A stretch of 64,000 nt of DNA. Source: Candidatus Peribacter sp. UBA6535 (GTDB lineage Bacteria > Patescibacteriota > Gracilibacteria > Peribacterales > Peribacteraceae). Position numbers and translations under genes: made by a program. The notes under the pieces were generated by a model. That model was not told where the DNA came from. It was given only the letters and a program-made list of their open reading frames with translations, and did no database searches. This document shows, in pieces, positions 9,641 through 37,479 of the stretch (position 1 is its first letter; every line of letters begins with the position of its first letter). The stretch spans positions 4,055 through 68,054 of the forward strand of contig DJKT01000001.1 of assembly GCA_002436205.1 (NCBI GenBank), given 5' to 3'.

Positions 9641-9718
9641 ATGGATACAAAATTTATACAATAATTTACATTGCTTAAAACAGCATTACAGAAAGGATAA
9701 CTCTATGTATGAATACAA

Positions 9719-9732
9719 AATTTGTACAAATT
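9719..9732. promoter_or_regulatory. Perfect 14-bp palindrome AATTTGTACAAATT (operator-like)
   Basis: Self-complementary sequence. A related copy, ATACAAAATTTATACAA, lies at 9645-9661 in the same AT-rich spacer. Confidence 0.25.
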
Positions 9733-9756
9733 AACATACCATGTCACATTCGTCTT

Positions 9757-10881: not shown

Positions 10882-10944
10882 AGAAACGACCGATCCAGTA
10901 TAGCGAAAAAGACGGTAGTAAACAGGGGTCTCACTCTATTTTCT

Positions 10945-12210: not shown

Positions 12211-12347
12211 GGTGGAGGGGGAATGTGCTTTATGCAAAGCACGCTTCAGGGCGCTTTTGATAGCGATTTTCTGAGTGCCTTTCGTTTGGCGAGTTGTCTT
12301 GTTTGCAGAGGGATCGTACCACGATTGAATTTTGATGCAATTGAAAT

Positions 12348-12923
12348 CTATTCAATCCATTCTTGTGCAGTCGCAACGACGTTCATGGGTACATCATGCA
12401 CTTCTACGGGTACATCATTCATTAGCTGGCATTGCAGACAGGTGCCCCAGAGAGGAGTTTCTGGATGGTGCATCTTGTACCAATTGAGCCACGTGTCGTA
12501 TCCACCAGATCCTCTGCCAAGTCGGTTCCTTTTGCGGTCAAATGCTCTGCCCGGCACCAGTACAATGTTTACTTTTTGATCTCCAAGTTCTTGTGCATTT
12601 TTCGGTGGTTCGGGGATTGTAAACTCTCCCGGAGGAAGATCATGCAGGTTTTGTGCTTTGCGATAGATCATCTTCTTATCTGCTCCAGCAAAGACTGGGA
12701 GGTATACCGTATCTCCACGCTCTATCAGTTCTTTTAAAAGAAGCTGAATATCCACTTCGGATTTTAGCGGGAAGTACGCACAGATGGTGGAGCCTTCGGG
12801 AATCTTTTTGAGAAGTACGCGACTGAGTGTTCTTCCTTCTGCTCGCCTCTGGCCATCATCCATATCATCAATTCTCTTCTTTATCTCTTGTCGCAAGATT
12901 TGCTTTTGTTCAGAGTGATGCAT
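12348..12923 (-). CDS. 5-formyltetrahydrofolate cyclo-ligase
   Basis: 191-aa ORF with the VLVPGRAFDRKRNRLGRGSGGYD motif of the 5-FCL family, next to glyA. Confidence 0.85.
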   Translation of the reverse strand: MHHSEQKQILRQEIKKRIDDMDDGQRRAEGRTLSRVLLKKIPEGSTICAYFPLKSEVDIQLLLKELIERGDTVYLPVFAGADKKMIYRKAQNLHDLPPGEFTIPEPPKNAQELGDQKVNIVLVPGRAFDRKRNRLGRGSGGYDTWLNWYKMHHPETPLWGTCLQCQLMNDVPVEVHDVPMNVVATAQEWIE

Positions 12924-12925
12924 AT

Positions 12926-12960
12926 GGGGACTGGTAGCTGGTAGCTGGGGGGATCGGGAT
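12926..12960. repeat. Heptamer-period array GGGGACT-GGTAGCT-GGTAGCT-GGGGGAT-CGGGATG
   Basis: 7-nt periodicity read directly from the sequence, in the spacer between the 5-FCL start and the dnaX stop. Confidence 0.8.
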
Positions 12961-12979
12961 GATGATATGATAACAAATT

Positions 12980-13010
12980 CCTAACTACTAATCCCTAACT
13001 ACTAATCCCT
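12980..13010. repeat. (CCTAACT-ACTAATC)x2 tandem repeat (14-nt unit made of two heptamers)
   Basis: Two perfect 14-nt copies followed by CCTAA. The last copy overlaps the dnaX stop codon. Confidence 0.85.
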
Positions 13011-14490
13011 AAAAAATTTCTGCTGCCGCATCTGCAAGATTTACGATATCTTCTGCAGGGCTTACTGCGGACGCTTCGTTACTGTGTGCTCCGTTTTCCA
13101 ATTCACATTCGAGTTTGAGTTGTGTTTTAAATATTGCTTCTAGTACTTCTTCTATAGTGCGACAGGCTTGCGTCTCTTGTACTTTGTCCCTATGAAAAGC
13201 AGAAGAGAATGAGATGACAACCTTTTTTCCATCGAGGTTTGTTATTCTTCCGTTCTTGAGAGACATCTTTACAGACGCTGGTGTGGTTTGACTCAGAATA
13301 TCCTGCCAAGATTTTTGTATGCTCTCGACGGAGAGGTCGGGTGCTTGTATCACTGCATCTTGTAGTACAGACTCTTCCTCTGGGCTATGTTCTTCTGTAA
13401 CTTCTATAGTCTCTGAAACTTCTGTCACTTCTGTCACCTCTTCTTTCGGTTCCTCTTTTGGTAAGACAATGGTTGGTGGACTTTCTCCAGATTCTCTGCA
13501 GAGGGTAAGTAGTACAGATTCAAGCACGAGGCCTGGAACCGGACTGATGCGAATGTCGCGGATTGCATTGAGCAATACACCTTGTAATGCCAGTAAGTCG
13601 TTTGTGGATTTCTTTTCTTTGATATTGCTGTGGATGGCATCTCGTACGAGACGGAGGAGTTGTCTAGTAAAGACATCCAGTGGCACACCTGCATCTTCAA
13701 CTTTGGCAATACTAGCAAGAATGCCATCACGATCTTTTTCCTGTAGAGCAGTCATTACTTCCTCTACGTAAATCCGACCGGTTGCGCCAGTACGCTGAGC
13801 AACATCTTCTAAGGTAATACTTTCTAGTGAACGCATTTGATCGAGTAGAGAAATAGCGTCCCGCATTCCACCTTCACTGACATGAGCAATACTTCGCAGA
13901 GCTTCTCGATCGATAGTGATGTGCTCCTGATCGGCTATATACTGCAATCTTCGGATAATGTCATCTTCCCTGATATGTCGAAATGGAAAGCACTGGCATC
14001 GAGATTGTACGGTGACAGGGATCTTATTAAGCTCTGTAGTTGCCAAGATAAAGAAGGCGTACGCAGGTGGCTCTTCTAGTGTTTTCAGTAGAGCGTTAAA
14101 TGCTTCTTTGGTAAGCATATGTACCTCATCAATAATATAGACCTTTGCAGAAGCTACCACAGGGGAGAATTGAATCTTTTCTATTAAGTCGCGTACATCG
14201 TCGATACCACGATTACTCGCTGCATCAATTTCAAGCAGATCAACAATATTTCCATCATCCACCGCCTGTTCGATTTGTTTTTTGAGCACAGCATCTTCGG
14301 TGCTTCTCGTCATTATCAATTTTGCCAGTATGCGAGCAACAGAAGTTTTTCCTGTTCCCCGACTTCCTGCAAATAAATAGGCATGTGCGAGTTTATCGCT
14401 GCTTGAAGCTTTTTCCAGAGTACTGACGACGTGTTCTTGGCCGTAGACATCAGCAAAGAGTTTTGGTCGGTACTTGCGGTAGAGAGACAT
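13009..14490 (-). CDS. dnaX: DNA polymerase III subunit gamma/tau
   Basis: MSLYRKYRPKLFADVYGQEHV, AHAYLFAGSRGTGKTS P-loop, and DEVHML Walker B. Confidence 0.95.
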   Translation of the reverse strand: MSLYRKYRPKLFADVYGQEHVVSTLEKASSSDKLAHAYLFAGSRGTGKTSVARILAKLIMTRSTEDAVLKKQIEQAVDDGNIVDLLEIDAASNRGIDDVRDLIEKIQFSPVVASAKVYIIDEVHMLTKEAFNALLKTLEEPPAYAFFILATTELNKIPVTVQSRCQCFPFRHIREDDIIRRLQYIADQEHITIDREALRSIAHVSEGGMRDAISLLDQMRSLESITLEDVAQRTGATGRIYVEEVMTALQEKDRDGILASIAKVEDAGVPLDVFTRQLLRLVRDAIHSNIKEKKSTNDLLALQGVLLNAIRDIRISPVPGLVLESVLLTLCRESGESPPTIVLPKEEPKEEVTEVTEVSETIEVTEEHSPEEESVLQDAVIQAPDLSVESIQKSWQDILSQTTPASVKMSLKNGRITNLDGKKVVISFSSAFHRDKVQETQACRTIEEVLEAIFKTQLKLECELENGAHSNEASAVSPAEDIVNLADAAAEIF

Positions 14491-14509
14491 TGGAGGAGGA
14501 GTATAGAAC

Positions 14510-14569
14510 GGATAGCGGATAGCGGATAGTGGATAATGAAATCAACTGGTCACAAGTCACAAATCACGT
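14510..14569. repeat. Heptamer arrays GGATAGC-GGATAGC-GGATAGT-GGATAAT and GTCACAA-GTCACAA-ATCACGT
   Basis: Located in the divergent dnaX / DsbA-like intergenic region. The GGATAGY/GGATAAT family recurs at 40704-40724. Confidence 0.85.
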
Positions 14570-14584
14570 TACTCTAGGTCTACT

Positions 14585-15163
14585 ATGAAAACACCACTCA
14601 CACTCCTATCACTTACTATTCTTCTTACCGCTTGCGGAGAGGCAGAAGTTTCGATGCGAACACCAAAGGGTAATCCAAATGCCGCAGTGCTTGTTGAAGA
14701 ATTTGCAGATTTACAATGCCCAGCATGTGGAGCAGGTCATACAAAAATTGTTGCACCACTTCTTGAAAAGTATGGAAATGAAATTCGTTTTGAGCATAAG
14801 CATTTCCCACTAAGATCCATTCATCGTTTTGCATTGGATGCGAGTGAAATGAGTGAGTGTGCAGCTGATCAAGGAAAATTTTGGGAATATGTGGATATTG
14901 CATTTACCAATCAAAAAGACTTAAGCCTTGAATCGATTGTTGAATGGGCGCAGGCTCTAGGACTTGATGCAGATAAGGCAGAACGTTGCTGGAAATCTCA
15001 TAGCAAACGTGACACTGTTCTTGCAGATTACAAAGAAGGTCGAGAAAGAGGTGTTGGTGGTACGCCAACATTCTTTGTAAATGGAGAACAAGTGCAGACC
15101 GGACTCGATACTATTAGCGAAGCAATCGACAAGGCCCTAGAGGGAACGATGATGCGCCTTTAA
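14585..15163 (+). CDS. DsbA-family thiol:disulfide oxidoreductase lipoprotein
   Basis: Lipobox LLTAC, CPAC active site, thioredoxin-fold pattern (GTPTFFVNG). Confidence 0.8.
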   Translation: MKTPLTLLSLTILLTACGEAEVSMRTPKGNPNAAVLVEEFADLQCPACGAGHTKIVAPLLEKYGNEIRFEHKHFPLRSIHRFALDASEMSECAADQGKFWEYVDIAFTNQKDLSLESIVEWAQALGLDADKAERCWKSHSKRDTVLADYKEGRERGVGGTPTFFVNGEQVQTGLDTISEAIDKALEGTMMRL

Positions 15164-15744
15164 AATCGTGGAGTCATCTGTGCGAATCCGTAGAGACGAT
15201 CCAACTTTGTATCCCACAGAACGACTGTGCGGTACTTGATGAAGTCCTCTATTTTTTCGTCGAGAACAAAACCCTGTGCTCCGAATGGCACTTTTACTTC
15301 TCCTAGATCAATTGCTGTAATATCAGGAAATTGCACATCTCGAGGATCAACAGTTACTGTCAGAAACGCGTGAACAGAAGGTCCCGGAGTTGTATCAAAT
15401 GTTGGTCCGAAATACACGGTTTTACCGTTAAACACTACCTCTCCTTCTGTGTATTCTTTCATTGTAGTGAACGATCCTTTCATGCCTTTACGCTGTGCCT
15501 TGCGTGCTTCTTTTGCCTTTTTAAGCCAGTACTCTTTGGTGCTATCCACTACCTTTTGCTTTGCTGCATCTTCCAAAAGCGGATCTTCGTAAATTTCCAA
15601 ATTAACCATCGCATCTACCAATTGCTCTGCATATTGTTCCAAATAGAGAGGATTCTCTAGAAGAGCCTTTTGGTCTGGATTGTATGTTCCACCGCAAGCT
15701 GCAAGCAGAAGTGGGGTAATAAGGGCAATGGAGCGTATTTTCAT
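15160..15744 (-). CDS. Lipoprotein, possible DM13-domain protein
   Basis: Lipobox LLAACGG. The C-terminal half (GPSVHAFL...LGEVKVPFGAQGFVL...VVLWDTKLDRLYGFAQ) resembles the DM13 pattern. The assignment is tentative. Confidence 0.5.
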   Translation of the reverse strand: MKIRSIALITPLLLAACGGTYNPDQKALLENPLYLEQYAEQLVDAMVNLEIYEDPLLEDAAKQKVVDSTKEYWLKKAKEARKAQRKGMKGSFTTMKEYTEGEVVFNGKTVYFGPTFDTTPGPSVHAFLTVTVDPRDVQFPDITAIDLGEVKVPFGAQGFVLDEKIEDFIKYRTVVLWDTKLDRLYGFAQMTPRF

Positions 15745-15789
15745 AAAATGATTAAGAAAGAAGTGGGCTTACTATACTGAGAGTACAGC

Positions 15790-17865
15790 CTAATTCAAGG
15801 AAGAAAGAGGCCCTACTGAGTGGTAGGTCATACCATGGCGATCCAGCACACGGGCTGCCCGTTTAATGCGATGATTGAGGCTATAGGCAACATAGGCATT
15901 TTTACCTGCAGAAACGTCTTTGTCGATATAGTTGGTCCAGTACCAAAATGACCACGTGTTTTTGTTGGCATTTGCCTGTTCGACGAACGCATCTACTCCG
16001 CTGTCTGTTGAAAATACATTCTGTGGCCCAACACCTTTGGTGCGAATAGATGGTTGGTTGAATCCGTCAACGAAGTTATTTTCGTAGCCATCATCATGCC
16101 CGGGCCCAGAATGACTGAGGCGCTGTGCAGTTTCTTCTATGGACTGTTTACGCAGGCGATCCTCCAATCCCTCGGTCAAGTATCCGCGCTCCTGACACCA
16201 GGTGCGGTTGTACACACAAGTCGTTACACACTGCAGACAATCTGCCCCATGTGCCAATGCTTTGCTGTACAGTTTTTGATATGACGGTGGAAGCAGTGCC
16301 ATTACTGCATCGATCTCTTCTCGTGCATCGCGTATTTCTTGCGCTGCATTATCTCCTGCCTCCTCGGTGTCACTTTTGTTTCCAAAGGCTTTGAGATGTT
16401 TTTCCATCGATTGTAGTTCTGCAATATCTTCTGCGGACTGCGCAAGTGGCCAGGCAAGTCCAAGGTAATACTGCGCCTCTTCCCAGTTTTCCGTATCCAG
16501 TGCATGTCGTACTTTACCTTTTTTGTCCTGAATAGGAGTGTCTTTTGGGTCGTTAACCTGAATGTGCAGTCTGCGTTCTGCTTCTTCTACATAACTAAGC
16601 CTCTGTGCGTAACTTAAGTTCAAAAACTTATCCTCAGACAGACGTTGTAACCCTTGGGGTACTCGGTCTTTCATCATCTTTTGTTCCACTTGATCGTAGC
16701 GGTAGCGCACCTTCGCCCAGTCTTTTATAAAGTTTTTTAGCTCTTGCAATGTTCGCTGCCCATTGATCACGTGCTCTGTCCATGGTCCTATTTTTGTACT
16801 ACTGATGTATCCAGCTGATACTGCTGCCCCCAACACATTCTTTGTCTCGCTATGCAGTAGCAGCTTACTTCTTTGGAATGCACTCATCGCGGCACGTGCC
16901 TCTGCGACCATGCCTTCTTTTGTATCAAAGTGCAGAGCACGGAACGCGGTATCATCGGTGAAGGTGCTGAGTTTTTTGAATTCTTTTTCGGTAATCTCTT
17001 TAAAGAGGGGGTCTTTCAACACGTCACTTCTTTCTTTATGTACTTTCTTCCATGCTTTTACGTACGAGGGGAATTGCGATTTTACAAAGTATTCTTTTGC
17101 CTTCAGGTTTACAGAAGGATCTTTGAATCTGGCGATCCATTTTTTCATAGAGGTTGAAGAGATGAGCCCTGCACCAACCGCACTTTTGAGGTCTGCTTCA
17201 AATCCTGTAAAGAGTTTCTCTTCACCTTTAGCCAGTGGTAGTGCATTAAGCACTTCGGTTATTAGGCTCTTGCGCCCATCAAATGAAAGTGTTTCGAGGA
17301 AGTAATTGGAGTCTGATATTTTCGCTGCCAAAGCTTTAAGAGCTGGGTCTGCGGAATTTTCCAGAGCACTAAAGCGTGAGTCTCGCAGTATACCTTCTTT
17401 CTTAGAGGCAAGAGCTTGCCGCTTATCCAGGTAGTCTGGAAGTACTCTGAGAATAGAAGACTCTTTCTCTTTGTAGTCCCTACTTTTATCGCGCACCCAC
17501 TTTACCCATTCATCAAATGATCCCTTCGATATGATACCGGCAGATACTGCACGTTGTAGCGGCGGCAGAAAATCTCCATGGTACAAATCCAATGCAGATT
17601 CTAATTTCTTGGAGTAGTCGAGTTGGTACCACTTGTTTGCTTCGAGAATTTTCTTCGTATCTGTTGGAGCAATACTATCGATCCATTGTTTGAGCGGTGC
17701 AGTCTGAGCAGCAGACGCCAGACCCAATTGGTCGTGTGTTACATGAAAATACTGATCGTACTTCTTTCGCATCGCTTGATATAAACCTTGGGATGATGCT
17801 GTTTCTTCAGTTTTTTCTTTCTTATAAGCCGTTCCCGTTGTAGCGCTATTGTATGTATCTGGCAT
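15790..17865 (-). CDS. Large cytoplasmic hypothetical protein with three internal repeats
   Basis: ORF 15790-17901 trimmed to ATG 17865. The motif AVSAG(I/L/Y)IS(K/S)...W recurs three times. No known family recognised. Confidence 0.6.
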   Translation of the reverse strand: MPDTYNSATTGTAYKKEKTEETASSQGLYQAMRKKYDQYFHVTHDQLGLASAAQTAPLKQWIDSIAPTDTKKILEANKWYQLDYSKKLESALDLYHGDFLPPLQRAVSAGIISKGSFDEWVKWVRDKSRDYKEKESSILRVLPDYLDKRQALASKKEGILRDSRFSALENSADPALKALAAKISDSNYFLETLSFDGRKSLITEVLNALPLAKGEEKLFTGFEADLKSAVGAGLISSTSMKKWIARFKDPSVNLKAKEYFVKSQFPSYVKAWKKVHKERSDVLKDPLFKEITEKEFKKLSTFTDDTAFRALHFDTKEGMVAEARAAMSAFQRSKLLLHSETKNVLGAAVSAGYISSTKIGPWTEHVINGQRTLQELKNFIKDWAKVRYRYDQVEQKMMKDRVPQGLQRLSEDKFLNLSYAQRLSYVEEAERRLHIQVNDPKDTPIQDKKGKVRHALDTENWEEAQYYLGLAWPLAQSAEDIAELQSMEKHLKAFGNKSDTEEAGDNAAQEIRDAREEIDAVMALLPPSYQKLYSKALAHGADCLQCVTTCVYNRTWCQERGYLTEGLEDRLRKQSIEETAQRLSHSGPGHDDGYENNFVDGFNQPSIRTKGVGPQNVFSTDSGVDAFVEQANANKNTWSFWYWTNYIDKDVSAGKNAYVAYSLNHRIKRAARVLDRHGMTYHSVGPLSSLN

Positions 17866-28510: not shown

Positions 28511-29209
28511 CTAGATTGATGGCAATCGATAATCGTATAAACCGGTTCGTGACTTTTCGTATCCAGGCATTGCCCATGCGACCCACGACCAGTATTGAGG
28601 GCTGTGGTCTGCACGTTTTCTGTGAGCCAGTTCGTGGATGATGACATATTTTATAACCTCTGGACGGGTAAATAGTAGTGCGGCATTGAGCATAATAGTT
28701 CCACTTGGGCTGCAGCTACCCCATTGAGAGGAGGCAAGTTGAAGCTTAACGTCTGAGACATGGACGCCGAAGGTTTCATCATTGAGCTTCATAACTAGCT
28801 GTTCTATGCGGGGTTGCTCCTCTTTGGCAATAGTCCTCCATAGGAGTCTATGAAGCCCTTTCCGGCGCATACTAGGGCCAATCTGAACGTTCCAGCCTCG
28901 GGTAGTGCGACGGACGGAGGTCTTTTTGCCGGGCTTAAGACAGAAGCAGTATTTCTTGCCATTATCCAGTGTAATGGTGGCACTCTCTCCACTATCAAGC
29001 AGCCTTCCGAAAGGGTTGATGAGGATCTTCTCCTGCTCATCTTCTACCTGCCTGAGCATACGTTCTAATAGGTCATCTACGTGCTCTTTTTCTTCGTCTT
29101 CAGAGAGCCCCTTAGCGAGCCTAATGACGATAGTATCGTCATGAAATACAGCACGACTATGTTTGTTTTTCGTGCGTTCTACTCGATGGCGAATGGGGTT
29201 TTTTTTCAT
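28511..29209 (-). CDS. YgjP/DUF45-like (M48/SprT-like) metal-dependent hydrolase
   Basis: HELAHRKRADHSPQYW zinc motif. ORF 28511-29341 trimmed to ATG 29209, because the upstream extension only translates the heptamer arrays. Confidence 0.75.
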   Translation of the reverse strand: MKKNPIRHRVERTKNKHSRAVFHDDTIVIRLAKGLSEDEEKEHVDDLLERMLRQVEDEQEKILINPFGRLLDSGESATITLDNGKKYCFCLKPGKKTSVRRTTRGWNVQIGPSMRRKGLHRLLWRTIAKEEQPRIEQLVMKLNDETFGVHVSDVKLQLASSQWGSCSPSGTIMLNAALLFTRPEVIKYVIIHELAHRKRADHSPQYWSWVAWAMPGYEKSRTGLYDYRLPSI

Positions 29210-29252
29210 GGGGGCTGATGAGTATACACGCCTGTCAAGGCTGCGGCCTGAA

Positions 29253-29283
29253 GTGGAAAGTGGAAAGTGGAAAGTGGAAAGTT
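29253..29283. repeat. (GTGGAAA)x4 heptanucleotide tandem repeat
   Basis: Four perfect units followed by GTTG. Confidence 0.9.
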
Positions 29284-29317
29284 GCGATTCCAAATCAGTA
29301 ATATTGGCTAGTGGAAG

Positions 29318-29352
29318 CCGTTTTCCGTTTTCCGTTTTCACTTTTCCGCTTT
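29318..29352. repeat. (CCGTTTT)x3-CACTTTT-CCGCTTT array, roughly the inverted complement of 29253-29283
   Basis: 7-nt periodicity. The reverse complement reads GGAAAAC/GGAAAAG-type units. It overlaps the last codons of the upstream gene. Confidence 0.85.
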
Positions 29353-30243
29353 CTGTTGCTCAAGTTCTGTGTTCAAGGCGCGCGCATCGCGAGCCGATTT
29401 GATGCAAAATTTTACGTTGGATTGCGCTTGACGAAAGTCGTCGATCAGCGCGTCATTATTATCAACACTCAGAAGTGATTCCAATACTTCTTCCTGGGTC
29501 TCCAGACAGTCGACGGCTTCGTCTATTTTTACCACGACAGACTCTGGTAATTCGGGTCTGGTGCGTACATCATCCAGGCGGATGGCAAGGTGATTGAGCC
29601 AGGCAAGAGACCGGCTGACGCGCATCTGAGCCATCGCGAGGCGCTTGTTGGATCTGTAGACTTCTCCAATACTTTTCTTTGCTGCCTGTAGCCCCTCTTT
29701 GTCTGTATAGACTCCTTCATCAATACCCCTCATGATTGTAGAAATAGCATCGGAGAGGTTTTGACTATGGGAAATAGCACTATTGCGATATTGCTCCGTA
29801 GGCCCCGGTAGGTAGCTTACATATTGGCGCTCTCTTCGGAGTATCTCTAGCTCTGCGCTCAGCGTTGCCTTATAGCAGTTGACCGTGATGGGCATCATTG
29901 CCCCACGGTTGGCTTTGCGGATGTCTGTGCGGCACTCTAGGCGCAAATTTCGACGGTTTTCACGGCGGGTGGCAAGCTCTTCTCTAAATTCCTTATCCGT
30001 TTTTCGATAGTTCATCATGGCAGCCCAGAAGCCAAGGTTACGGGTTCTGCGATCTGCCCATTGGAGATCTTCTTCGGAAATTGAGGACTCAGAGGATGCA
30101 GAAGATTCAGAGGAGGCAGCGGGTTTGTAGCCTTCTTGGAGTCCTACTTTCGCGTCAGCACCAAAGGGTATCAGGAGTATCCCGAGTAGACTGAATACGA
30201 TGAGGATCCATGAAGAGGGGGTCACGGGGAGATAGTGTACCAC
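29338..30243 (-). CDS. Membrane-anchored helical hypothetical protein
   Basis: 301-aa ORF with an N-terminal TM (SWILIVFSLLGILLIPFG), a Ser/Glu-rich linker and a predicted helical ectodomain. It lies 8 nt downstream of the mevalonate operon's last gene. Confidence 0.6.
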   Translation of the reverse strand: MVHYLPVTPSSWILIVFSLLGILLIPFGADAKVGLQEGYKPAASSESSASSESSISEEDLQWADRRTRNLGFWAAMMNYRKTDKEFREELATRRENRRNLRLECRTDIRKANRGAMMPITVNCYKATLSAELEILRRERQYVSYLPGPTEQYRNSAISHSQNLSDAISTIMRGIDEGVYTDKEGLQAAKKSIGEVYRSNKRLAMAQMRVSRSLAWLNHLAIRLDDVRTRPELPESVVVKIDEAVDCLETQEEVLESLLSVDNNDALIDDFRQAQSNVKFCIKSARDARALNTELEQQKAEK

Positions 30244-30251
30244 ATGCCTTC

Positions 30252-31169
30252 TTACGCCTTCACGCGCTCCAAAACCAATCCTCCTAATTGACCAACAACA
30301 ATATCAACATCGTCATTGACGATCAGGTCATCAAAGAGCTCTTTGCGATCTTTGAAGAACGCAAGATCTGCCTCTGCATTCTTTAGGCGGTCTTCTATCT
30401 GTTGCTCGGTATCACGGCCACGATCCCTCAGTCTGTGGAGCAGAGCACTCAGCATTTGTCGTTTACTCTTGCCCGGAGGTAGCAGTCCACAGCTGAGGAT
30501 TGACCGCCTGCCGTAGTGGGAGGCAAGTCCCTGGAGCAGATTCATCTCGGTAATGATGACGGGGATCTTTTTCTCCTTCCAGATTTTTTCAATATCTTCG
30601 CTGCGGTATCCGTAGAGACGCTTTTCATCCCGGGAAGGTATGCTCGTGAAGGTCGCGAGCTTACCGTCATTTTTGAGCGCGAGAAATTCTTCTGGGCTCA
30701 CGTGTGTGTACTCATCCTGATCTCCCTCTTTTACTTTCCGTGTTGTGAGAATGGGAACACGTTCGCAGTTACCTACTTTAGCCGAAAGTAGCAGAGAGAC
30801 CGTAGTTTTTCCGACACCGGAAGGGCCGGTGAGGGCGAGGATGTATCCGGGGAATTCCTCTTTTACGGGTTTTTGGAGCGGGACTTCGTAGGCTATGTCG
30901 TAGGTGCGGAGACCTTGAGCGTTGACTCTGGAGAGGCGCATTTTTGGTATCACTTTCATGCCAATGGCAGTTGGCAGTTGGCAGTTGGCAATTAGCTGAG
31001 CCGTTACTCTCGATCCATCCTCTAGCTCGATCAATCCGATTACCCTTGGTTTAGTGGGGAAACCTTCCGGAGGATGACGAACGATAGTGTGTGACAAAAT
31101 TGTTCCCTCCTGCAATTTGTTCTGCAGATCTTTTTGAGCGCGGTGGTTGGCTGCCGGAGTATTACGCAT
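30252..31169 (-). CDS. Fusion protein: DUF35 acyl-CoA-associated OB-fold domain plus a divergent guanylate-kinase-like P-loop kinase domain
   Basis: ATG 31169 lies within the thiolase stop (ATGCGTAA). N-terminal: GTILSHTIVRHPPEGF..PRVIGLIELEDGSRV..IGMKV (OB-fold pattern, no zinc ribbon). C-terminal: GPSGVGKTT, TTR, RLRDRGRDTEQQIEDRL, LIVNDD (Gmk family). Confidence 0.8.
   Translation of the reverse strand: MRNTPAANHRAQKDLQNKLQEGTILSHTIVRHPPEGFPTKPRVIGLIELEDGSRVTAQLIANCQLPTAIGMKVIPKMRLSRVNAQGLRTYDIAYEVPLQKPVKEEFPGYILALTGPSGVGKTTVSLLLSAKVGNCERVPILTTRKVKEGDQDEYTHVSPEEFLALKNDGKLATFTSIPSRDEKRLYGYRSEDIEKIWKEKKIPVIITEMNLLQGLASHYGRRSILSCGLLPPGKSKRQMLSALLHRLRDRGRDTEQQIEDRLKNAEADLAFFKDRKELFDDLIVNDDVDIVVGQLGGLVLERVKA
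30967..30998. repeat. (GCAGTTG)x3-GCAATTAGCTG element inside the DUF35-kinase gene
   Basis: Matches 20786-20818 at 32 of 33 positions in the same plus-strand orientation. Read on the minus strand as QLIANCQLPTAI. Confidence 0.9.
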
Positions 31170-32268
31170 GAGAGAGAATGTGGATGCCACAGGTTGCAGC
31201 TGCACCACCGAAGTTGTGAGCAAGGCCGTGGCGAGATTTGGATTCTTTAAGTTGCTTGGAAACATCAATGACTTGTTTGATACCAGTAGCTGCAACGGGG
31301 TGGCCACAGGCTTTTAAGCCCCCACTTTGGTTTATAGTCATCTTGTTTTCTTTTTCATAAAGCGCAATACCTTCTCCAGGGTTTGCAAATCCCATATCTT
31401 CTAAAGAGATAAGTGCTGCAATAGAGAAACAGTCATGGAGCTCGATATGTCCGATATCTGTCCGATCAATTTCCGCCTCTTCAAGAGCAGCACGCATTGC
31501 ATCTTTTGTCGCTGCAAACGAAGTGATGGTAGGACGGTCTGCAATACTTAGAGTGTCTGTTGCAAGTTGTGAAGCAGCGATCCGGATAGGACTTTCGAAT
31601 TTTGTAGAAAGGATCACGCTAGCTGCCCCATCGGAAATAGGAGAGCAGTCGAGCATACAGAGTGGGTCTGCAACTTTTGCCGATGCACTGATGCTTTCTG
31701 CGGGGATCTCTTTGCAGAATTGTGCGAAGGGATTACTGACTGCATTTTTGTGATGTCTGGCACTGACATGATTTAGCCTGTCTCGACTTAAGCTATATTC
31801 ATGCATATATCTGGCAGCTATCAGTCCGAAAATTCCTGGGAAGGTGAGTCCAGAAGGTGCATCTTTTTGCGCATCTGCTGCCCCCATAAGTCCTGCGGCT
31901 ATCTTGCCTGGGGCTATATCAGTCATCTTTTCTACTCCGACAACAAGTACTGTCTGCGCCTTACCACTTTCCAGTAATGCACAGGCTGTGTGCAGAGCTA
32001 CAGCTCCTGACGCACACGCTGCCTCTGCGCGAAGTGCTGGAGGATGGTGTGGCAAGAGCGAAGCAGCCATTGCTCCAAGGTGTGCTTGATCTGAGGCAAC
32101 TTCTCCAAGCATGTTGGCAACGACGACCATATCAATATCTAGCGCAGTACATTCCGCAGACTCAATAGCGCTGTCGATAGACTCTTCCATCAGATCTTTG
32201 ATCGACATATCCCAGTGCTCGGCGAAGCGCGTTTGTCCTGTGCCTGTGAGGTAGATGGGAGTGTTCAT
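31162..32268 (-). CDS. Acetoacetyl-CoA thiolase, archaeal/SCP-x type
   Basis: 368 aa. Thiolase-like N-terminus (MNTPIYLTGTGQTRF), catalytic-Cys region EAACASGAVAL, and C-terminal NFGGAAATCGIH. Confidence 0.9.
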   Translation of the reverse strand: MNTPIYLTGTGQTRFAEHWDMSIKDLMEESIDSAIESAECTALDIDMVVVANMLGEVASDQAHLGAMAASLLPHHPPALRAEAACASGAVALHTACALLESGKAQTVLVVGVEKMTDIAPGKIAAGLMGAADAQKDAPSGLTFPGIFGLIAARYMHEYSLSRDRLNHVSARHHKNAVSNPFAQFCKEIPAESISASAKVADPLCMLDCSPISDGAASVILSTKFESPIRIAASQLATDTLSIADRPTITSFAATKDAMRAALEEAEIDRTDIGHIELHDCFSIAALISLEDMGFANPGEGIALYEKENKMTINQSGGLKACGHPVAATGIKQVIDVSKQLKESKSRHGLAHNFGGAAATCGIHILSHA

Positions 32269-33278
32269 GCAACGCGCTGGTATTCGGAGTAGTTGAGGTA
32301 CACAGTTTCTCTTGTATCAGGTTGGAGCTTTACTCCATCCTTAAGCATCGTCATCAAGAATGCATCACTTCCTGCTCCCGATCCATACGATACGAGCAGG
32401 ATACGCTGATCTTTCTTTGCTTGCTGCAATACGTGTGCAAGTCCTAGAGGGCTACAGGCTGAGTACGTGTTTCCGATAGTCTCCACTATAAATCCGTGTT
32501 CCATCTGGTCTTTACTAAAGCCAAATTCTTTTGCAATGCGTGATGGGAACTTAGCGTTTGGCATATGGAAGATCACATGATCAATTTCTTCTGGTTTGAT
32601 CTTTCCTACTTCCAGCATTCCCTTCGTCGCTTCGCGGACATGGTGGAAGTACGCGGGTTCTCCGGTAAAGCGTCCTGCGTGTTCTGGATGGTCTTTTCCA
32701 TTTGCTCTCCAGAAGTCCGGTGTGTCTGTGGTAAACGATAGCGTGTGATCAATCTTACAGAGAGCATTCTTCTCACTAGCTAGACCCATGATGAATGCAG
32801 CAGCACCTGCAGCGGCTGTATACTCCAGTGCATCTCCGGGCTTGGCTTGCGCGCAATCTGCACCTATCGCAAGGCCGTGGCTGATCTGCTTTGCGCGAAT
32901 CATACTATCGACTATCTGCAGAGATGCTGTTCCTGCTTTGCAGGCAAACTCGAGATCTGCGCAGTGACAGAACGGATCACATTCAAGCGCAGCTGCCACC
33001 ATCCCACTTGTCGGCTTTACCGCATACGGGTGACTTTCGGATCCGACAAATACTGCAGATACCTGAGAGCTTTTGATATCTGCAATTTCGATTGCTTGCT
33101 TTCCAGCTTCAAACGCCAGTGTAAATGTATCTTCTCCTTCATTTGGTACGGTTTTTTCCACCACTCCCAATCCTGCCTTTATCGACTCAGCATCTTGTTG
33201 CCACGCAGCGGCAATCTCCTCCGCTTTGATCTTATGGGAGGGTATACTTAAACCGAAACCGAGGATGGCGGATTGCAT
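32265..33278 (-). CDS. Hydroxymethylglutaryl-CoA synthase, archaeal type
   Basis: 337 aa. It has a short archaeal-type HMGCS/KAS-III-like layout (GSESHPYAVKPT, catalytic-Cys region, VSYGSGAGSDAF). ATGA overlap with the thiolase gene. Confidence 0.9.
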   Translation of the reverse strand: MQSAILGFGLSIPSHKIKAEEIAAAWQQDAESIKAGLGVVEKTVPNEGEDTFTLAFEAGKQAIEIADIKSSQVSAVFVGSESHPYAVKPTSGMVAAALECDPFCHCADLEFACKAGTASLQIVDSMIRAKQISHGLAIGADCAQAKPGDALEYTAAAGAAAFIMGLASEKNALCKIDHTLSFTTDTPDFWRANGKDHPEHAGRFTGEPAYFHHVREATKGMLEVGKIKPEEIDHVIFHMPNAKFPSRIAKEFGFSKDQMEHGFIVETIGNTYSACSPLGLAHVLQQAKKDQRILLVSYGSGAGSDAFLMTMLKDGVKLQPDTRETVYLNYSEYQRVA

Positions 33279-33314
33279 CGAGCGGTATATTAGCAGAGAT
33301 TGGGCTCTGTAAAG

Positions 33315-34472
33315 CTATCTAGCCAGCTTTTTATGACTGCTGGCAAGCTTCTGTGCAGCTTGAGCTGCAAGCAGCGATACTTCACCTGCAAGGACAGCGC
33401 CGCCTATGGATTCTGCAAGCTGCTGGACGCGACTGAGTGAAGTAGTTGGTTTAAGGAGAAGGTCTAGACACTGATGTTGTGCAGGGAGAGCAGTGCCTCC
33501 ACCGATGGTGCCAACGAGGATTGCTGGGAGGCGCACCTCGATTTCCAGTTCTCTACTTGAGAGAAGTCTACAAGAAGTATCTGCGAGCGATCCCTCTGTT
33601 ACATGTGCAGCATCTTGCCCTGTAGCAATATACAGTGCCGCAATTATATTGGCTGCATGTAAGTTTGTTCCAATGGCACCGGCAATCTTCGATCCTCGTT
33701 TTAGCTTAGCTTCGTAAACCTTCATCATTTCCTCAGGCGTTGTTTTGAGGACGTCCGAACATATGGAGAATCCAATTGAACATGTTGCCGTTACTTCGTA
33801 CCCACGACCTTTGTCGTGTGTTCTTTGCGATGGTTTTTTATCACTATCTACATTGGCGGCAATTGTGATGAGTTCGCAGTTGCCGTGCTTGGCAATCCAA
33901 TTGCCAATCTCTTGAGCAGCTATCGTTATCATATTCATTCCCATTGCCTCATTGGTATCACCGTTGATTGTTAGAAAAACATAGTCATCTGCCTCATCAA
34001 TCTCGTAATGTATTATCTGAAGATGCTTGCTCGTTGCCTGACCGATTTTCTTCCATTGGTTCTTCTTATCTTTAATGAACGCCGGAAGCCTCGATTCTTT
34101 ATCTGATACTTTGAACGCGATAGAACGACTGATACCATGATAGATTACAGAGGTCTTCACATCGGCTTTTGATAGTGCTTTGCAGCCGCGGTTCACACTC
34201 GCTACCAATGCCCCTTCGGTGGTTGCAAGAGGCAAGTGAATACTATCGGTATCACCGGAACTAAATGTCATTTTCAGTGGCCCTGCATACCCGACAGGAA
34301 TCGGCACACTTCCAAACATCTGCTCGCAGTTATTTTCTTCTGCTTGCCCTATGCGGTTAGGCTCTGTTCCGAGTAGCGAAAGATTGAGATCCAGATTATC
34401 TTGAATCTTCATTCTGCGTACAGCACAACGCTCATGAGGGGAGAGCGATTCGGGGAGATTGCGGAGGTCCAT
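33315..34472 (-). CDS. HMG-CoA reductase, class I
   Basis: TTEGALVASVNRGCKA, EAMGMNM and VGTIGGGT motifs typical of class I enzymes. An alternative GTG start lies at 34475. Confidence 0.92.
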   Translation of the reverse strand: MDLRNLPESLSPHERCAVRRMKIQDNLDLNLSLLGTEPNRIGQAEENNCEQMFGSVPIPVGYAGPLKMTFSSGDTDSIHLPLATTEGALVASVNRGCKALSKADVKTSVIYHGISRSIAFKVSDKESRLPAFIKDKKNQWKKIGQATSKHLQIIHYEIDEADDYVFLTINGDTNEAMGMNMITIAAQEIGNWIAKHGNCELITIAANVDSDKKPSQRTHDKGRGYEVTATCSIGFSICSDVLKTTPEEMMKVYEAKLKRGSKIAGAIGTNLHAANIIAALYIATGQDAAHVTEGSLADTSCRLLSSRELEIEVRLPAILVGTIGGGTALPAQHQCLDLLLKPTTSLSRVQQLAESIGGAVLAGEVSLLAAQAAQKLASSHKKLAR

Positions 34473-35449
34473 CACACTAAGTGTGCACCAGGACCTATCG
34501 AAGCTTCAAATATTTGGCAGCCTTCTTGGGTGTGGGCATACTCTGCGATTCGCTCTTTTGCTTCGTCTGTGCAGAATAAATGCACTGTAGGACCTGCATC
34601 CATCGTGTAGAGCACAGGGAGGTGTTCGGCTTTGCGGAGCGCTTTAACCTCATCCAAAATCCGATAGGTTTCATCAGAAAGATAGTTGAGTGGTGGGTCT
34701 TGCGTCTGCATACAGTGGTGCATTTCCATGCAATCTTCTTCAGCAACCTTCTGTAGTTTTTCGAAATCCTTACTGAGAATTGCATCGATACATTCCTGTT
34801 GGCGATGGCCATTGATCGCATCTACTCGCGCTGCAAAATCCGGGCTTGTCTGAGCCTGCGGATGCCCTTCGGATGATCCTACTTTCTTTTCTTCGGTACT
34901 CGGAACAATGATGATGTCATGCAAATTCCAGTGATGTTCATCTGCCACCTGCCACCCTTTGCATCCATCAATAAATTGATTTTCCTCATTACGAATAGCA
35001 CCGAAACCACCGAAGATTGATCTGGCAGCAGAGCCCGACCCAAGTCTCGCCATGATGCTTATTTGCTCATCGGTTAGATCAAAATCGACAAGACCAGAAA
35101 TGGCTTTGGCAAGAGCAGAAAATACTGCGGCAGAGGAGGCGAGTCCGATAGCGGGAGGGATGTGGGAATCGATCTTTATAGACAGGTTTGATACTTTTGT
35201 AGGCTCAATTGTTCCGAGATAACTTTCGATCAACTCAAGAGTTTTTTTAAAACGTAAGATGTTTTTTTCGGTCATCTCTTTATTGGTTGATGTGATCGAG
35301 AGAGTATCTGCATGATCGATCGTAATATCCAAACTCGGAGTGTTCAGTGTCATAGAGAGACTGTCGTTTGCACACAGGCGAAACTCGTTGTGTCTGTTTC
35401 CCCAGTATTTGATGAGGGCGATATTTGGAGTGGAGCGTGCAGTGATCAT
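34472..35449 (-). CDS. mvaD: Diphosphomevalonate decarboxylase family protein (could equally be a phosphomevalonate decarboxylase)
   Basis: NIALIKYWGNR, NDSLSMTL and GLASSAAVFSALA GHMP motifs. 325 aa. Confidence 0.9.
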   Translation of the reverse strand: MITARSTPNIALIKYWGNRHNEFRLCANDSLSMTLNTPSLDITIDHADTLSITSTNKEMTEKNILRFKKTLELIESYLGTIEPTKVSNLSIKIDSHIPPAIGLASSAAVFSALAKAISGLVDFDLTDEQISIMARLGSGSAARSIFGGFGAIRNEENQFIDGCKGWQVADEHHWNLHDIIIVPSTEEKKVGSSEGHPQAQTSPDFAARVDAINGHRQQECIDAILSKDFEKLQKVAEEDCMEMHHCMQTQDPPLNYLSDETYRILDEVKALRKAEHLPVLYTMDAGPTVHLFCTDEAKERIAEYAHTQEGCQIFEASIGPGAHLV

Positions 35450-36264
35450 AATTGGATAACAGGATACTGAGAGGGGACCTGCGCTGCATCAACATTCACT
35501 GCTAAAACCATCCCACATCCACCGGTCTTGCTTCCTGCCCCGAGCACCTTGGCAGCTCCACCTTCTTGTTCAATTTTTGTGATCAGACTTTTTGCTTCAT
35601 CTGTAACAACTCCAAGAGATTGCTGTGCAAGATTGTGTTCTTTGAAAATATCAGAAAGGTTTTCATGCTGTTGTAATTTTTTACAACAACTTCCGATGGT
35701 ACGGAGAGGTTCTTCCAGCTCATCTTTGCGTTCGGTTACCCACTCGATCAGCTCCGGTGTTTGCTGATCCGGTTCCCCGGTATCAATCAGTAAAGCTCCT
35801 TTTAAAAGATCATCTGGTAATTCAATCACTTCCGGCTCTGTTCCCTTCTGAAACTTGATCGGTCTCTCATTCCAGATGACTGCAAAGTCGATGCCGCTAT
35901 TTCCGGGATTTACTGCATCCTCAATTTCGAGAGCTTTCTCTTTATCTTCTCCAATCAAACATTTCGTAACAGCAATCAACAAGGCAGTTGAAGCTCCCAT
36001 GCCTTTACCGAGGGGGAGTGGACTATTGATAGAAAGTGTTCCACCAAATGTACCGCAATGGCTAATGATCTGCTTGAGATACTCTTGCCAGTGAGGCTTT
36101 CCGGTCATTTGCTGCCACTCCACTGAAAGATCCTTTATCTCTGAGTTTTCTTCATAGACTGCAGAAATACCAAGTGGAGCGGGGATTGCTATTCCCGGGT
36201 ACCCGAAGAGTACGGCGTATTCACCGGAGAGGATGATCTTTCCTGATGCATGAGCAGTTCTCAT
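35446..36264 (-). CDS. mvk: Mevalonate kinase (short GHMP kinase)
   Basis: ORF trimmed to ATG 36264, which overlaps the uppS stop (ATGA). It has GKIILSGEYAVLFG and PLGKGMGASTA GHMP motifs. 272 aa. Confidence 0.8.
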   Translation of the reverse strand: MRTAHASGKIILSGEYAVLFGYPGIAIPAPLGISAVYEENSEIKDLSVEWQQMTGKPHWQEYLKQIISHCGTFGGTLSINSPLPLGKGMGASTALLIAVTKCLIGEDKEKALEIEDAVNPGNSGIDFAVIWNERPIKFQKGTEPEVIELPDDLLKGALLIDTGEPDQQTPELIEWVTERKDELEEPLRTIGSCCKKLQQHENLSDIFKEHNLAQQSLGVVTDEAKSLITKIEQEGGAAKVLGAGSKTGGCGMVLAVNVDAAQVPSQYPVIQL

Positions 36265-36932
36265 TCTCCAAACCTGCGGGTACGATCTGCAAACTTTCCA
36301 ACGGAATCTGATAAATCCTCCACAGTAAAGTCTGGGAAGAACTTGTCGACAAAATCCCACTCGGCATACGTTGCTTGCCAGAGGAAGAAGTTTGAGGTGC
36401 GATGCTCTCCTGAGGTTCGGATGATGAGATCAATATCAGAAAGCTCCGGATGATCGAGCGCAGCTGCTATTGCTTCTTCGCTGACGTCATCAGTTTTACT
36501 GAGTGCTCTTACTACTTCATCCTTCCCACCGTAATCGATAGCGAGGTGCAGAGTGAATCCTGTTTGGTCTTTGGTTTCCTCTTCTACTACAGCAATCAAT
36601 TTGGCAAGTGAAGAGGGGATCCGGTCTTTTCTTCCGGAGTGCACGAAGCGGGTTTGATTCTCCAAAAACGTAGAGCGCTCTTTGGCGAGGTACTCTTCCA
36701 GTAGCCCCATCAACATATCAATTTCCTTTGGGTCACGTTTCCAGTTTTCAGTCGAAAAACACCAGACGGTAAGAGTATGTACTCTTTTGTCTTCCCGACA
36801 CCAGTCTGTCAGTGTACGAAAATTCTCGACGGCTACTTTGTGCCCCTCCCAGGGTTTGAGTGTACGAGACTTTGCCCAACGCCTGTTGCCATCGGGAATG
36901 ATGGCGATGTGAAGAGGGTTATCTGGCATCAA
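36261..36932 (-). CDS. uppS: Isoprenyl transferase (undecaprenyl-diphosphate synthase family)
   Basis: IAIIPDGNRRWAK, FSTENWKR and IRTSGEHRTSNFFLWQ motifs. Confidence 0.93.
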   Translation of the reverse strand: MMPDNPLHIAIIPDGNRRWAKSRTLKPWEGHKVAVENFRTLTDWCREDKRVHTLTVWCFSTENWKRDPKEIDMLMGLLEEYLAKERSTFLENQTRFVHSGRKDRIPSSLAKLIAVVEEETKDQTGFTLHLAIDYGGKDEVVRALSKTDDVSEEAIAAALDHPELSDIDLIIRTSGEHRTSNFFLWQATYAEWDFVDKFFPDFTVEDLSDSVGKFADRTRRFGE

Positions 36933-37440
36933 GAATTATCTGGAGTGCCAGAGGAAACCATGGAGCGTACAAATCAGGATTCTCTTCTAAGTCTTTTTCA
37001 AGCTCATCAATCTCTATCCACTTCATATCCATGATTTCACTCGGATCGGGATTGAGTTCGATAGATTCATCAGCAGTCCCCACTAGCACCGTATCGTATT
37101 CGTACTCTGTTCCTCGCCCCTCAGGGTCGTCTGCTTTATAGATAAACGAGTCTACTGCCTCTACTCCTGCCCGGAATCCACACTCTTCTTTAAGGCGATC
37201 GGAAGCCTCTATTTCTATATCAAACTTCTCTTTGGGGTGGCTACAGCAGGTATTTGCCCAAAACCCCGGAAAGAGCATCTTTACAGAGGCGCGCCTCTGA
37301 ATCAGCAATTTCTGGTGATCAGGGGTAAATATGAAGACAGAGAAGGCTTTGTGGAGCTTTCCCCCCTCTGTGTGAGCTTCGATAATTTCGGACTTTCCGA
37401 GGCTTTGACCCTGTTCATTGGTGAGTATGACTGATTTCAT
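36919..37440 (-). CDS. idi: Isopentenyl-diphosphate delta-isomerase, type 1 (Nudix)
   Basis: LHKAFSVFIF...LLIQRRASVK..FPGFWANTCCSHP pattern. 173 aa. Confidence 0.88.
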   Translation of the reverse strand: MKSVILTNEQGQSLGKSEIIEAHTEGGKLHKAFSVFIFTPDHQKLLIQRRASVKMLFPGFWANTCCSHPKEKFDIEIEASDRLKEECGFRAGVEAVDSFIYKADDPEGRGTEYEYDTVLVGTADESIELNPDPSEIMDMKWIEIDELEKDLEENPDLYAPWFPLALQIILDAR

Positions 37441-37479
37441 GGGTTTATTATACCACTAAAATACGCTATAATAGTTCTA

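Follow-up and report, generated by a model that had tools for sequence, protein, structure and literature searches.

Variants of the mevalonate pathway have repeatedly been found through genes that appeared to be 'missing', as was the case for isopentenyl phosphate kinase (IPK), phosphomevalonate decarboxylase (PMD), mevalonate 3-kinase and the anhydromevalonate route. Anantharaman et al. 2016 (PMC4736985) called the mevalonate pathway of the Peribacteria 'near-complete', having found the steps to mevalonate 5-phosphate and those from the 5-diphosphate onward. For the candidate phyla radiation (CPR), Hoshino & Gaucher 2018 (PMC6107057) reported an archaeal thiolase, 3-hydroxy-3-methylglutaryl-CoA (HMG-CoA) synthase (HMGCS), class I HMG-CoA reductase (HMGR), mevalonate kinase (MVK), phosphomevalonate kinase (PMVK), diphosphomevalonate decarboxylase (DPMD), type 1 isopentenyl-diphosphate isomerase (IDI-1) and sometimes IPK, with mevalonate genes that are syntenic with a cis-prenyltransferase gene; they also observed IPK-IDI synteny in genomes of the phylum without other mevalonate genes, and found that the enzymes of these bacteria form their own clades next to archaea. 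Here we analyze a mevalonate operon of eight minus-strand genes (positions 30252-37440) in a 64,000-nt stretch of DNA from Candidatus Peribacter sp. UBA6535 (contig DJKT01000001.1), referred to below as the window. The last gene of this operon encodes a fusion protein with a DUF35 OB-fold and a guanylate-kinase-like domain.

The window operon shares with published CPR clusters the archaeal-type thiolase and HMGCS, the class I HMGR, MVK, a GHMP decarboxylase, IDI-1 and the synteny with cis-prenyltransferase, and it comes from the same lineage as the 2016 genomes. The operon as such, with its archaeal flavour and uppS linkage, is therefore already published and ordinary for the lineage. In the published clusters there is a PMVK and/or an IPK phylum-wide, or the step is silently missing in Peribacteria, whereas in the window neither was found and the DUF35-fused guanylate-kinase-like domain is present instead. 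What is new here are the assignment of the decarboxylase to a type and a candidate for the terminal kinase domain. We consider it probable that the guanylate-kinase-like domain of the fusion is an isopentenyl phosphate kinase, non-homologous to the known IPK, in a PMD-type pathway. Our literature search found no paper that assigns a phosphomevalonate or isopentenyl phosphate kinase role to a DUF35/guanylate-kinase protein.

The assembly that carries the operon (1.12 Mb, 67 contigs, 92.7% complete) belongs to the Peribacteraceae (Peregrinibacteria, CPR). It was compared with 24 genomes of the same family and with a 401-genome sample of the phylum, in which the decarboxylase was present in 24 of 401. 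G000 denotes the genome carrying the window, other G numbers the compared genomes, and L numbers their loci.

The guanylate-kinase-like domain and the missing kinase

The fusion protein consists of the following parts:

30252-31169, minus strand: fusion protein, 305 aa (PF01796 47.8 bits, PF00625 42.5 bits)
30885..31169, minus strand: N-terminal part of the fusion, short helix and DUF35 OB-fold, residues 1-95 (PF01796 47.8 bits)
30252..30854, minus strand: guanylate-kinase-like P-loop domain, residues 106-305 and stop (PF00625 42.5 bits; TIGR03263 73.9 bits, below its cut-off of 160.45)

The best solved relative of the OB part is the 130-aa DUF35 chain 6ESQ_E (27 bits), of which it covers residues 50-121. 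With nothing aligned ahead of chain residue 50 and no Cys-rich N-terminus, the fusion lacks the zinc ribbon. An AlphaFold2 model built with 88 homologues (pLDDT 87.5, with a pTM of 0.64 for the inter-domain arrangement) has beta strands at residues 22-95, and its C-terminal 200 residues superimpose on GMP-bound guanylate kinases with a TM-score of 0.8-0.88 and an rmsd of about 2 Å, at 22-26% identity.

Acceptor-site residues of the domain are numbered here as in the yeast guanylate kinase (S34, R38, R41, Y50, E69, Y78, S80), and conservation was judged over 88-122 homologues. Little or no variation is seen in the P-loop GPSGVGK, the arginine of the TTR motif (R38), the Lys or Arg at R41, Y50 and Y78, and the same is true of the lid arginines R131, R135 and R146 (RLRxRGR...DRL). 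In contrast, the residues that read guanine, S34, E69 and S80, are I, T/A/S and Y across the homologues (I, T and Y in the window), whereas the gmk that G000 has on another contig, a normal guanylate kinase gene, keeps them as S, E and T. Such a combination, in which catalytic and phosphate-binding residues are kept while the guanine readers are lost, is the pattern that one would expect of an active kinase acting on a phosphomonoester other than GMP. Two insertions are specific to the family: one of 4 residues ahead of Y78, accompanied by the near-invariant P178, S179 and R184, and one with the conserved motif PPGxSxR that precedes the lid. Homologues of the fusion carry only Peregrinibacteria, Peribacteraceae or Patescibacteria labels.

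The sequence-only reading that preceded this analysis had reported no recognisable second kinase in the operon, and for the known families this proved to be true genome-wide. There are two GHMP proteins in G000, both in the operon (the MVK-like kinase and the decarboxylase), and no GHMP-type PMVK (TIGR01220/TIGR01219) was found either in this genome or across the family. The animal-type phosphomevalonate kinase PF04275 gave no match in G000, and IPK (NF040647, cut-off 120 bits) gave none in G000 and none above the cut-off in any sampled Peribacteraceae genome. The possibility of an IPK hidden among AA_kinase proteins was ruled out, since the sole such match in G000 is pyrH, adjoining frr. The same reading had named the methylerythritol phosphate (MEP) pathway as a check on the operon's role; dxr, ispG and ispH had no match in the G000 genome, nor did it hold a third GHMP protein that could be ispE. 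The operon is thus the only route to isopentenyl diphosphate (IPP) found among the families searched, and it is without every known second kinase. The same kinase gap occurs in G007, G018 and G022 (99-100% complete in 2-10 contigs), each of which combines the fusion with two GHMP genes and a single AA_kinase, of pyrH type.

Among the 24 family genomes, 17 have the full fusion, two (G020 and G024) have a stand-alone kinase and five have neither. Four of these five (G008, G012, G013 and G017) are also without GHMP genes; in the fifth, G001, the contig that carries the operon breaks off within the thiolase gene. G001 was therefore dismissed as a counter-example; it is the sole exception to the co-occurrence of the fusion with the two mevalonate GHMP genes across the family. 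Within the phylum sample, matches to the kinase domain of at least 169 bits were confined to the Peribacteraceae, and the remaining matches, at about 50 bits, are ordinary gmk.

The stand-alone copies, which form a recurrent subfamily of 200-235 aa in a protein search, bear most directly on the substrate. In G020 and G024, where HMGR and ispH gave no match, a 215-aa stand-alone kinase that is 60% identical to the window domain lies beside uppS, and G020 has idi elsewhere in the genome. In three further metagenomic contexts the stand-alone kinase abuts a cis-prenyltransferase gene, and in GCA_001781725.1, a metagenome-assembled genome labelled Candidatus Kaiserbacteria, the gene two positions from it encodes a bona fide IDI-1 (NF002995 205.6 bits). 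Since genomes without the mevalonate pathway offer a phosphomevalonate kinase no substrate, these copies are the strongest argument for isopentenyl phosphate as the substrate, and the module of stand-alone kinase, IDI and cis-prenyltransferase parallels the published IPK-IDI synteny. As the kinase occurred only in Peribacteraceae within the 401-genome sample, the Kaiserbacteria-labelled copy points to horizontal transfer or a mislabelled bin.

Two local observations concern these loci. At L050 (GCA_001781725.1, MFMB01000010.1, 950-3535) the stand-alone kinase lies between uppS and IDI-1. In mevalonate-less genomes, His_Phos_1 histidine-phosphatase genes flank uppS, directly before the stand-alone kinase (L007 5150-5791; L048 4870-5598 and 6355-7008), and together with the kinase they could form a phosphatase/kinase pair on prenyl phosphates.

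The decarboxylase and the step that is missing

Which kinase the pathway needs depends on the decarboxylase, which the sequence-only reading had left as either a mono- or a diphosphate enzyme. Active-site residues narrow this question:

34472..35449, minus strand: GHMP decarboxylase with PMD signature, 325 aa (TIGR01240 194.6 bits, cut-off 171)

Decarboxylases of the phylum (31 sequences) were aligned with two PDB sequences; sites are numbered as in the mevalonate diphosphate decarboxylase (MDD) of S. epidermidis, and the discriminating ones were taken from Dellas 2013 Table 4, where K21, I27 and S192 are MDD residues, and a residue other than Lys at 21 with Arg at 27 are PMD residues. Sites 21/27/193/196 are N/R/S/H in the window enzyme, as opposed to K/I/R/M in MDD. 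N21, R27 and H196 are identical to those of the Anaerolinea thermophila PMD 6N0X, which is also its best solved relative (157.6 bits, versus 129.9 bits for S. epidermidis MDD). The A. thermophila structure solved by Thomas et al. is described in PMC9254496 as a PMD, the specificity of which was converted by mutagenesis to that of a diphosphomevalonate decarboxylase. Between 6N0X and its companion entry 6N0Z, the N of the YWGN motif changes to K and the H of GSTQGH to M; the window enzyme has N and H.

The native decarboxylases of Peribacteraceae have N21/R27/(S,T)193/H196 in 12 of 12 cases. Elsewhere in the phylum, six enzymes have K21/(I,V,M)27/M196, as does S. epidermidis MDD, and none of their six genomes has an IPK above the cut-off. 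In three of these six a GHMP gene lies beside the decarboxylase gene, and all three are bona fide PMVK (TIGR01220, 215-237 bits), while in the other three a neighbouring PMVK was not found or not scanned. For five enzymes without K21 and with H196, an IPK is found in all five genomes (140-220 bits); it adjoins the decarboxylase gene in G243 and lies within the cluster in G059. In a maximum-likelihood tree, the K21/M196 enzymes and S. epidermidis MDD form a clade with 100/100 support, and those of Peribacteraceae form a separate, long-branch clade outside it. Judged from this pattern across the phylum, the Peribacteraceae decarboxylase most likely belongs to the monophosphate class, in which case the missing step would be that from isopentenyl phosphate to IPP.

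Three relatives have exchanged the native decarboxylase for a two-gene cassette, composed of a canonical MVK (TIGR00549 185 bits) and a PMD-like decarboxylase with R21/R27/H196, and have kept the fusion:

L011 14472-16650: replacement cassette in G021
L013 1-1834: replacement cassette in G023
L043 8852-10834: replacement cassette in G337

In the replacement decarboxylase the catalytic Asp283 is exchanged for Asn. The same MVK/decarboxylase pair was seen in G238 and G074, which represent other lineages of the phylum. Two MVK-like GHMP kinases and a decarboxylase, with neither PMVK nor IPK, were seen at L026, L028, L038 and L039 (G324, G401, G238 and G074, respectively). At locus L046 of G042 (G042:C1:23000-42900, operon 9494-17005) the order is idi-uppS-MVK-HMGR-HMGCS-thiolase-fusion, with a 317-nt gap at the position of the decarboxylase, and a second GHMP protein, UbiD and IPK were not found in that genome. 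The archaeal anhydromevalonate route was considered for G042 and set aside on the lack of a UbiD match; an AcnX-type dehydratase was not searched for.

Candidate substrates of the kinase domain

Several points weigh against an assignment of the domain as an IPK. R184, which is nearly invariant, and R189, which is conserved in at least 80% of homologues, are outside the canonical guanylate-kinase set and neighbour the tyrosines of the acceptor site, where they could bind a carboxylate such as that of phosphomevalonate. The A. thermophila decarboxylase reportedly accepts mevalonate 5-phosphate and 5-diphosphate about equally, so the PMD signature does not exclude a diphosphate route. The correlations between signature and kinase rest on five and six genomes of related organisms, and operons that have K21 together with H196, two MVK-like kinases and no PMVK or IPK fit neither class. 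No decarboxylase could be detected in the 100% complete genome of G042, although it carries both the operon and the fusion. An IPK would also require a supply of isopentenyl phosphate in the mevalonate-less genomes, and, with G000 being 92.7% complete, a kinase could be unassembled.

Some of these points would fit a classical pathway in which the guanylate-kinase-like domain is a phosphomevalonate kinase, a P-loop enzyme like that of animals, and the decarboxylase acts on the diphosphate. The chemistry would be the same, i.e. phosphoryl transfer onto a phosphomonoester, and the conserved phosphate-binding residues of the domain, the two additional arginines and the dual acceptance reported for the closest solved relative of the decarboxylase are all compatible with it, as is the TIGR01240 score above the cut-off. 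It is also at the conversion of mevalonate 5-phosphate to the 5-diphosphate that Anantharaman et al. 2016 placed the gap. We nevertheless regard this as unlikely, since the decarboxylase is without K21, I27, R193 and M196, which every sampled PMVK-associated enzyme holds at least partly, and falls outside the MDD clade; since stand-alone kinases are found beside uppS or idi where MVK, decarboxylase and HMGR give no match; and since the acceptor pocket has gained hydrophobic residues (I34, Y80), not polar ones. One may also consider the reverse division of labour, with the MVK-like GHMP gene as PMVK and the P-loop domain as mevalonate kinase. This was ruled out by the MVK-scoring relatives of the GHMP kinase and by its counterpart in G328 (see below), and, as regards the P-loop domain, by the conserved acceptor-phosphate residues of guanylate kinase as well.

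A quite different alternative is that the kinase acts on some other isoprenoid phosphate tied to the cis-prenyltransferase (geranyl, farnesyl or polyprenyl), or that the domain is regulatory or inactive and the last kinase has gone unrecognised. The most constant neighbour of the domain, fused or free, is indeed uppS, which beside the stand-alone kinase has histidine-phosphatase genes as neighbours, G042 retains the fusion without a decarboxylase, and five family genomes have no trans-prenyltransferase, which makes their primer supply unusual. We know of no soluble enzyme of guanylate-kinase fold that acts on long-chain lipid phosphates, though, and inactivity is unlikely in a domain that keeps the full catalytic set of an active NMP-type kinase. 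Since the genomes that bear the mevalonate pathway still need a terminal kinase and none was found, we think that this alternative has rather little to recommend it. Finally, it could be that nothing has been replaced, a conventional PMVK or IPK being encoded in the unassembled 7% of a genome that is 92.7% complete in 67 contigs, or an intermediate being supplied by a host, given that the group is thought to be symbiotic (Anantharaman et al. 2016, PMC4736985), with the domain being a second nucleotide kinase. This we consider very improbable, since the gap is the same family-wide, including in the nearly or fully complete G007, G018 and G022, and since the guanine readers have been lost while a normal gmk is present.

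If the domain is an isopentenyl phosphate kinase, as we favour, the pathway would run as follows. Thiolase and HMGCS would produce HMG-CoA, probably while docked on the OB-fold of the fusion as in the archaeal complex, and class I HMGR would convert it to mevalonate, which the divergent GHMP kinase would phosphorylate to mevalonate 5-phosphate. The PMD-type decarboxylase would then act on this monophosphate to yield isopentenyl phosphate, and the OB-fused guanylate-kinase-like domain would convert the latter to IPP, in replacement of an IPK of the amino-acid-kinase type. IDI-1 would form dimethylallyl diphosphate (DMAPP), and the cis-prenyltransferase would make polyprenyl diphosphate for the cell envelope. 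Taken together, the Peribacteraceae may well have a third, undescribed solution to the last phosphorylation, i.e. an IPK of guanylate-kinase fold, related neither to the amino-acid-kinase IPK nor to either PMK type, that is tethered through DUF35 to thiolase and HMGCS, with the module of stand-alone kinase, IDI and cis-prenyltransferase making a polyprenyl carrier lipid from scavenged isopentenyl phosphate in ultra-small bacteria that have no mevalonate genes.

The operon and its relation to known systems

All eight genes that the sequence-only reading had listed were present as open reading frames (ORFs) with the expected family matches, in the order idi-uppS-MVK-decarboxylase-HMGR-HMGCS-thiolase-fusion (ORF listing and family scans). 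In addition to the fusion and the decarboxylase, the features of the operon and its immediate surroundings are:

37447..37452, minus strand: TATAAT box, 6 nt upstream of the idi ATG, read directly as ...GGTATAATAAACCC ATG
36919..37440, minus strand: idi, type 1 isopentenyl-diphosphate isomerase, 173 aa, first gene (NF002995 142 bits, cut-off 127; TIGR02150 112.7 bits, cut-off 105.8; PF00293 NUDIX)
36261..36932, minus strand: uppS-type cis-prenyltransferase, 223 aa (PF01255 218.6 bits; TIGR00055 199.9 bits, cut-off 109.55)
35446..36264, minus strand: divergent GHMP mevalonate kinase, 272 aa from ATG 36264 (TIGR00549 86 bits, below its cut-off of 163)
33315..34472, minus strand: class I HMG-CoA reductase, 385 aa from ATG, with a GTG one codon upstream (PF00368 297.8 bits)
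32265..33278, minus strand: archaeal-type HMG-CoA synthase, 337 aa (TIGR00748 389.7 bits, cut-off 353.35; NF003274 427.9 bits)
31162..32268, minus strand: archaeal-type acetoacetyl-CoA thiolase, SCP2-type, 368 aa (NF004720 362 bits, cut-off 420; NF053570 320.6 bits; both below cut-off)
28511..30243, minus strand: two downstream co-directional genes, for a 301-aa secreted or coiled-coil protein and then a YgjP-like metallopeptidase (PF01863 116 bits)

The longest ORF of the MVK gene starts at GTG 36360, and homologues align from about residue 30 of this long ORF. Its nearest relatives elsewhere in the phylum (phmmer) are kinases that score 150-180 bits on TIGR00549. A kinase of this sort is the sole MVK candidate in G328, whose full operon was the only one scanned to include a bona fide PMVK; on these grounds the divergent GHMP kinase is read as a probable mevalonate kinase. 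HMGR has the archaeal class I enzyme 6HR7 as its best solved relative, followed by plant and human class I enzymes (8ECG, 1DQ8), with no class II match; it scores 275 bits on TIGR00533, below the cut-off of 441.8. The best solved relative of HMGCS is 6ESQ_I (350.7 bits) and that of thiolase is 6ESQ_A (232 bits), and since thiolase falls below the family cut-offs, its assignment as archaeal-type rests on the latter match. The archaeal flavour noted previously is thus borne out by the best matches of thiolase, HMGCS and the OB domain to 6ESQ and of HMGR to 6HR7. As for the origin of the operon, the sequence-only reading had it either acquired from archaeal-type genes or sharing ancestry with them. 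Shared ancestry agrees with Hoshino & Gaucher 2018, whose separate clades for these bacteria argue against a recent acquisition.

A trans-prenyltransferase (PF00348, FPP/GGPP synthase) was not found in five family genomes (G000, G007, G020, G024 and G013), one of which is 99% complete in two contigs, and the uppS-type cis-prenyltransferase is present in all five. It may be that this enzyme primes from DMAPP or from a scavenged allylic diphosphate.

The overlapping junctions, of the kind associated with coupling, can be read directly and are as previously described. idi and uppS overlap by 14 nt from the TTG start of uppS, or by 11 nt from the next ATG; an ATGA is common to both genes at the uppS/MVK, MVK/decarboxylase and HMGCS/thiolase junctions, and a GTGATG is common to decarboxylase and HMGR. 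At the thiolase/fusion junction both genes use ATGCGTAA, in which the ATG of the fusion is embedded. The operon's one gap, of 36 nt, is that between HMGR and HMGCS, ahead of HMGCS. A Shine-Dalgarno-like sequence is not visible at most junctions, and a consensus scan detected no full -35/-10 pair ahead of idi. The TATAAT box at 37447-37452 may be the -10 element of the operon, giving a leaderless or near-leaderless mRNA; its proximity to the idi start and the scarcity of Shine-Dalgarno-like sites suggest a leaderless first gene and coupling-dependent translation. A terminator scan found no convincing terminator within the operon or after the fusion gene. At least nine more genomes of the family, with proteins 45-80% identical to those of the operon, show the eight genes in the same order, and the arrangement is thus no chance event. 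From the overlapping or short junctions, this conserved collinearity and the lack of a convincing internal terminator, we infer a single polycistronic transcript from idi to the fusion.

Downstream, the 301-aa ORF (29338-30243) begins 8 nt past the stop of the fusion and is overlapped by 4 nt by the YgjP-like gene. Its hydrophobic, signal-peptide-like N-terminus is accompanied by a stretch rich in Ser and Glu and by a long helical region, and no family match was obtained. Both genes are syntenic with the operon only in close relatives (same and neighbouring genera), and may be co-transcribed with it, yet they lie outside the conserved core. The 301-aa ORF was ruled out as a hidden kinase in view of its signal-peptide-like N-terminus, the lack of a family match and its restriction to close relatives. 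The flanking genes are unrelated to the pathway, namely MscS, a PilM-like gene and pdxS upstream, and those for the secreted protein, the YgjP-like peptidase and an IMPase-family protein downstream.

Should the proposed activity be correct, it would add to the known enzymes a non-homologous IPK built on a nucleotide-kinase fold, and would close the gap in the first complete Peribacteria genomes. It would also correct hundreds of database entries that are named 'guanylate kinase' or 'OB-fold domain-containing protein', suggest how genome-reduced symbionts without both isoprenoid pathways feed their cis-prenyltransferase, and provide a compact new kinase for isopentenol-utilisation pathways.

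Of the systems to which this locus can be compared, guanylate kinase itself (EC 2.7.4.8; PF00625, TIGR03263) shares with the domain the fold, the P-loop, the lid arginines and the Arg and Tyr residues that bind the acceptor phosphate. The domain differs from it in having only 22-26% identity, a TIGR03263 score of 74 versus 160 bits, replaced guanine readers and two insertions, and in the existence of a separate, true gmk. There is a precedent within the guanylate-kinase fold for making a diphosphate from a non-nucleotide phosphomonoester, namely PhnN (ribose 1,5-bisphosphokinase); matches of the kinase proteins to TIGR02322 are weak. The animal-type phosphomevalonate kinase (PF04275, NMP-kinase fold) is likewise a P-loop enzyme that takes a phosphate to a diphosphate and is a precedent for solutions outside the GHMP family, although it belongs to another family, with no PF04275 match in the G000 genome, and the substrate proposed here is another one.

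At the level of the whole pathway, the locus differs from the classical eukaryote/Firmicute type, in that it has no PMVK and its decarboxylase is without K21, the I27-type residue, R193 and M196. With the haloarchaea/Chloroflexi type (MVK, PMD, IPK; Dellas 2013, VanNice 2014) it shares the presence of MVK, the absence of PMVK, PMD-type residues and a predicted isopentenyl phosphate intermediate, whereas an NF040647 IPK was not found and the proposed kinase is an unrelated P-loop fold that is fused to a scaffold domain. That scaffold has its closest counterpart in the thiolase/HMGCS/DUF35 complex of Methanothermococcus thermolithotrophicus (6ESQ/6ET9), the best solved relative of all three components in the window, where the HMGCS-thiolase-DUF35 order is kept. 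In contrast to the archaeal complex, the DUF35 part in the window is without an N-terminal zinc ribbon and carries a 200-residue kinase at its C-terminus; a complex of the three window proteins is predicted. If both the complex and the kinase activity are as proposed, the enzyme of the last step would be fused to the scaffold of the first two, which is an unusual arrangement.

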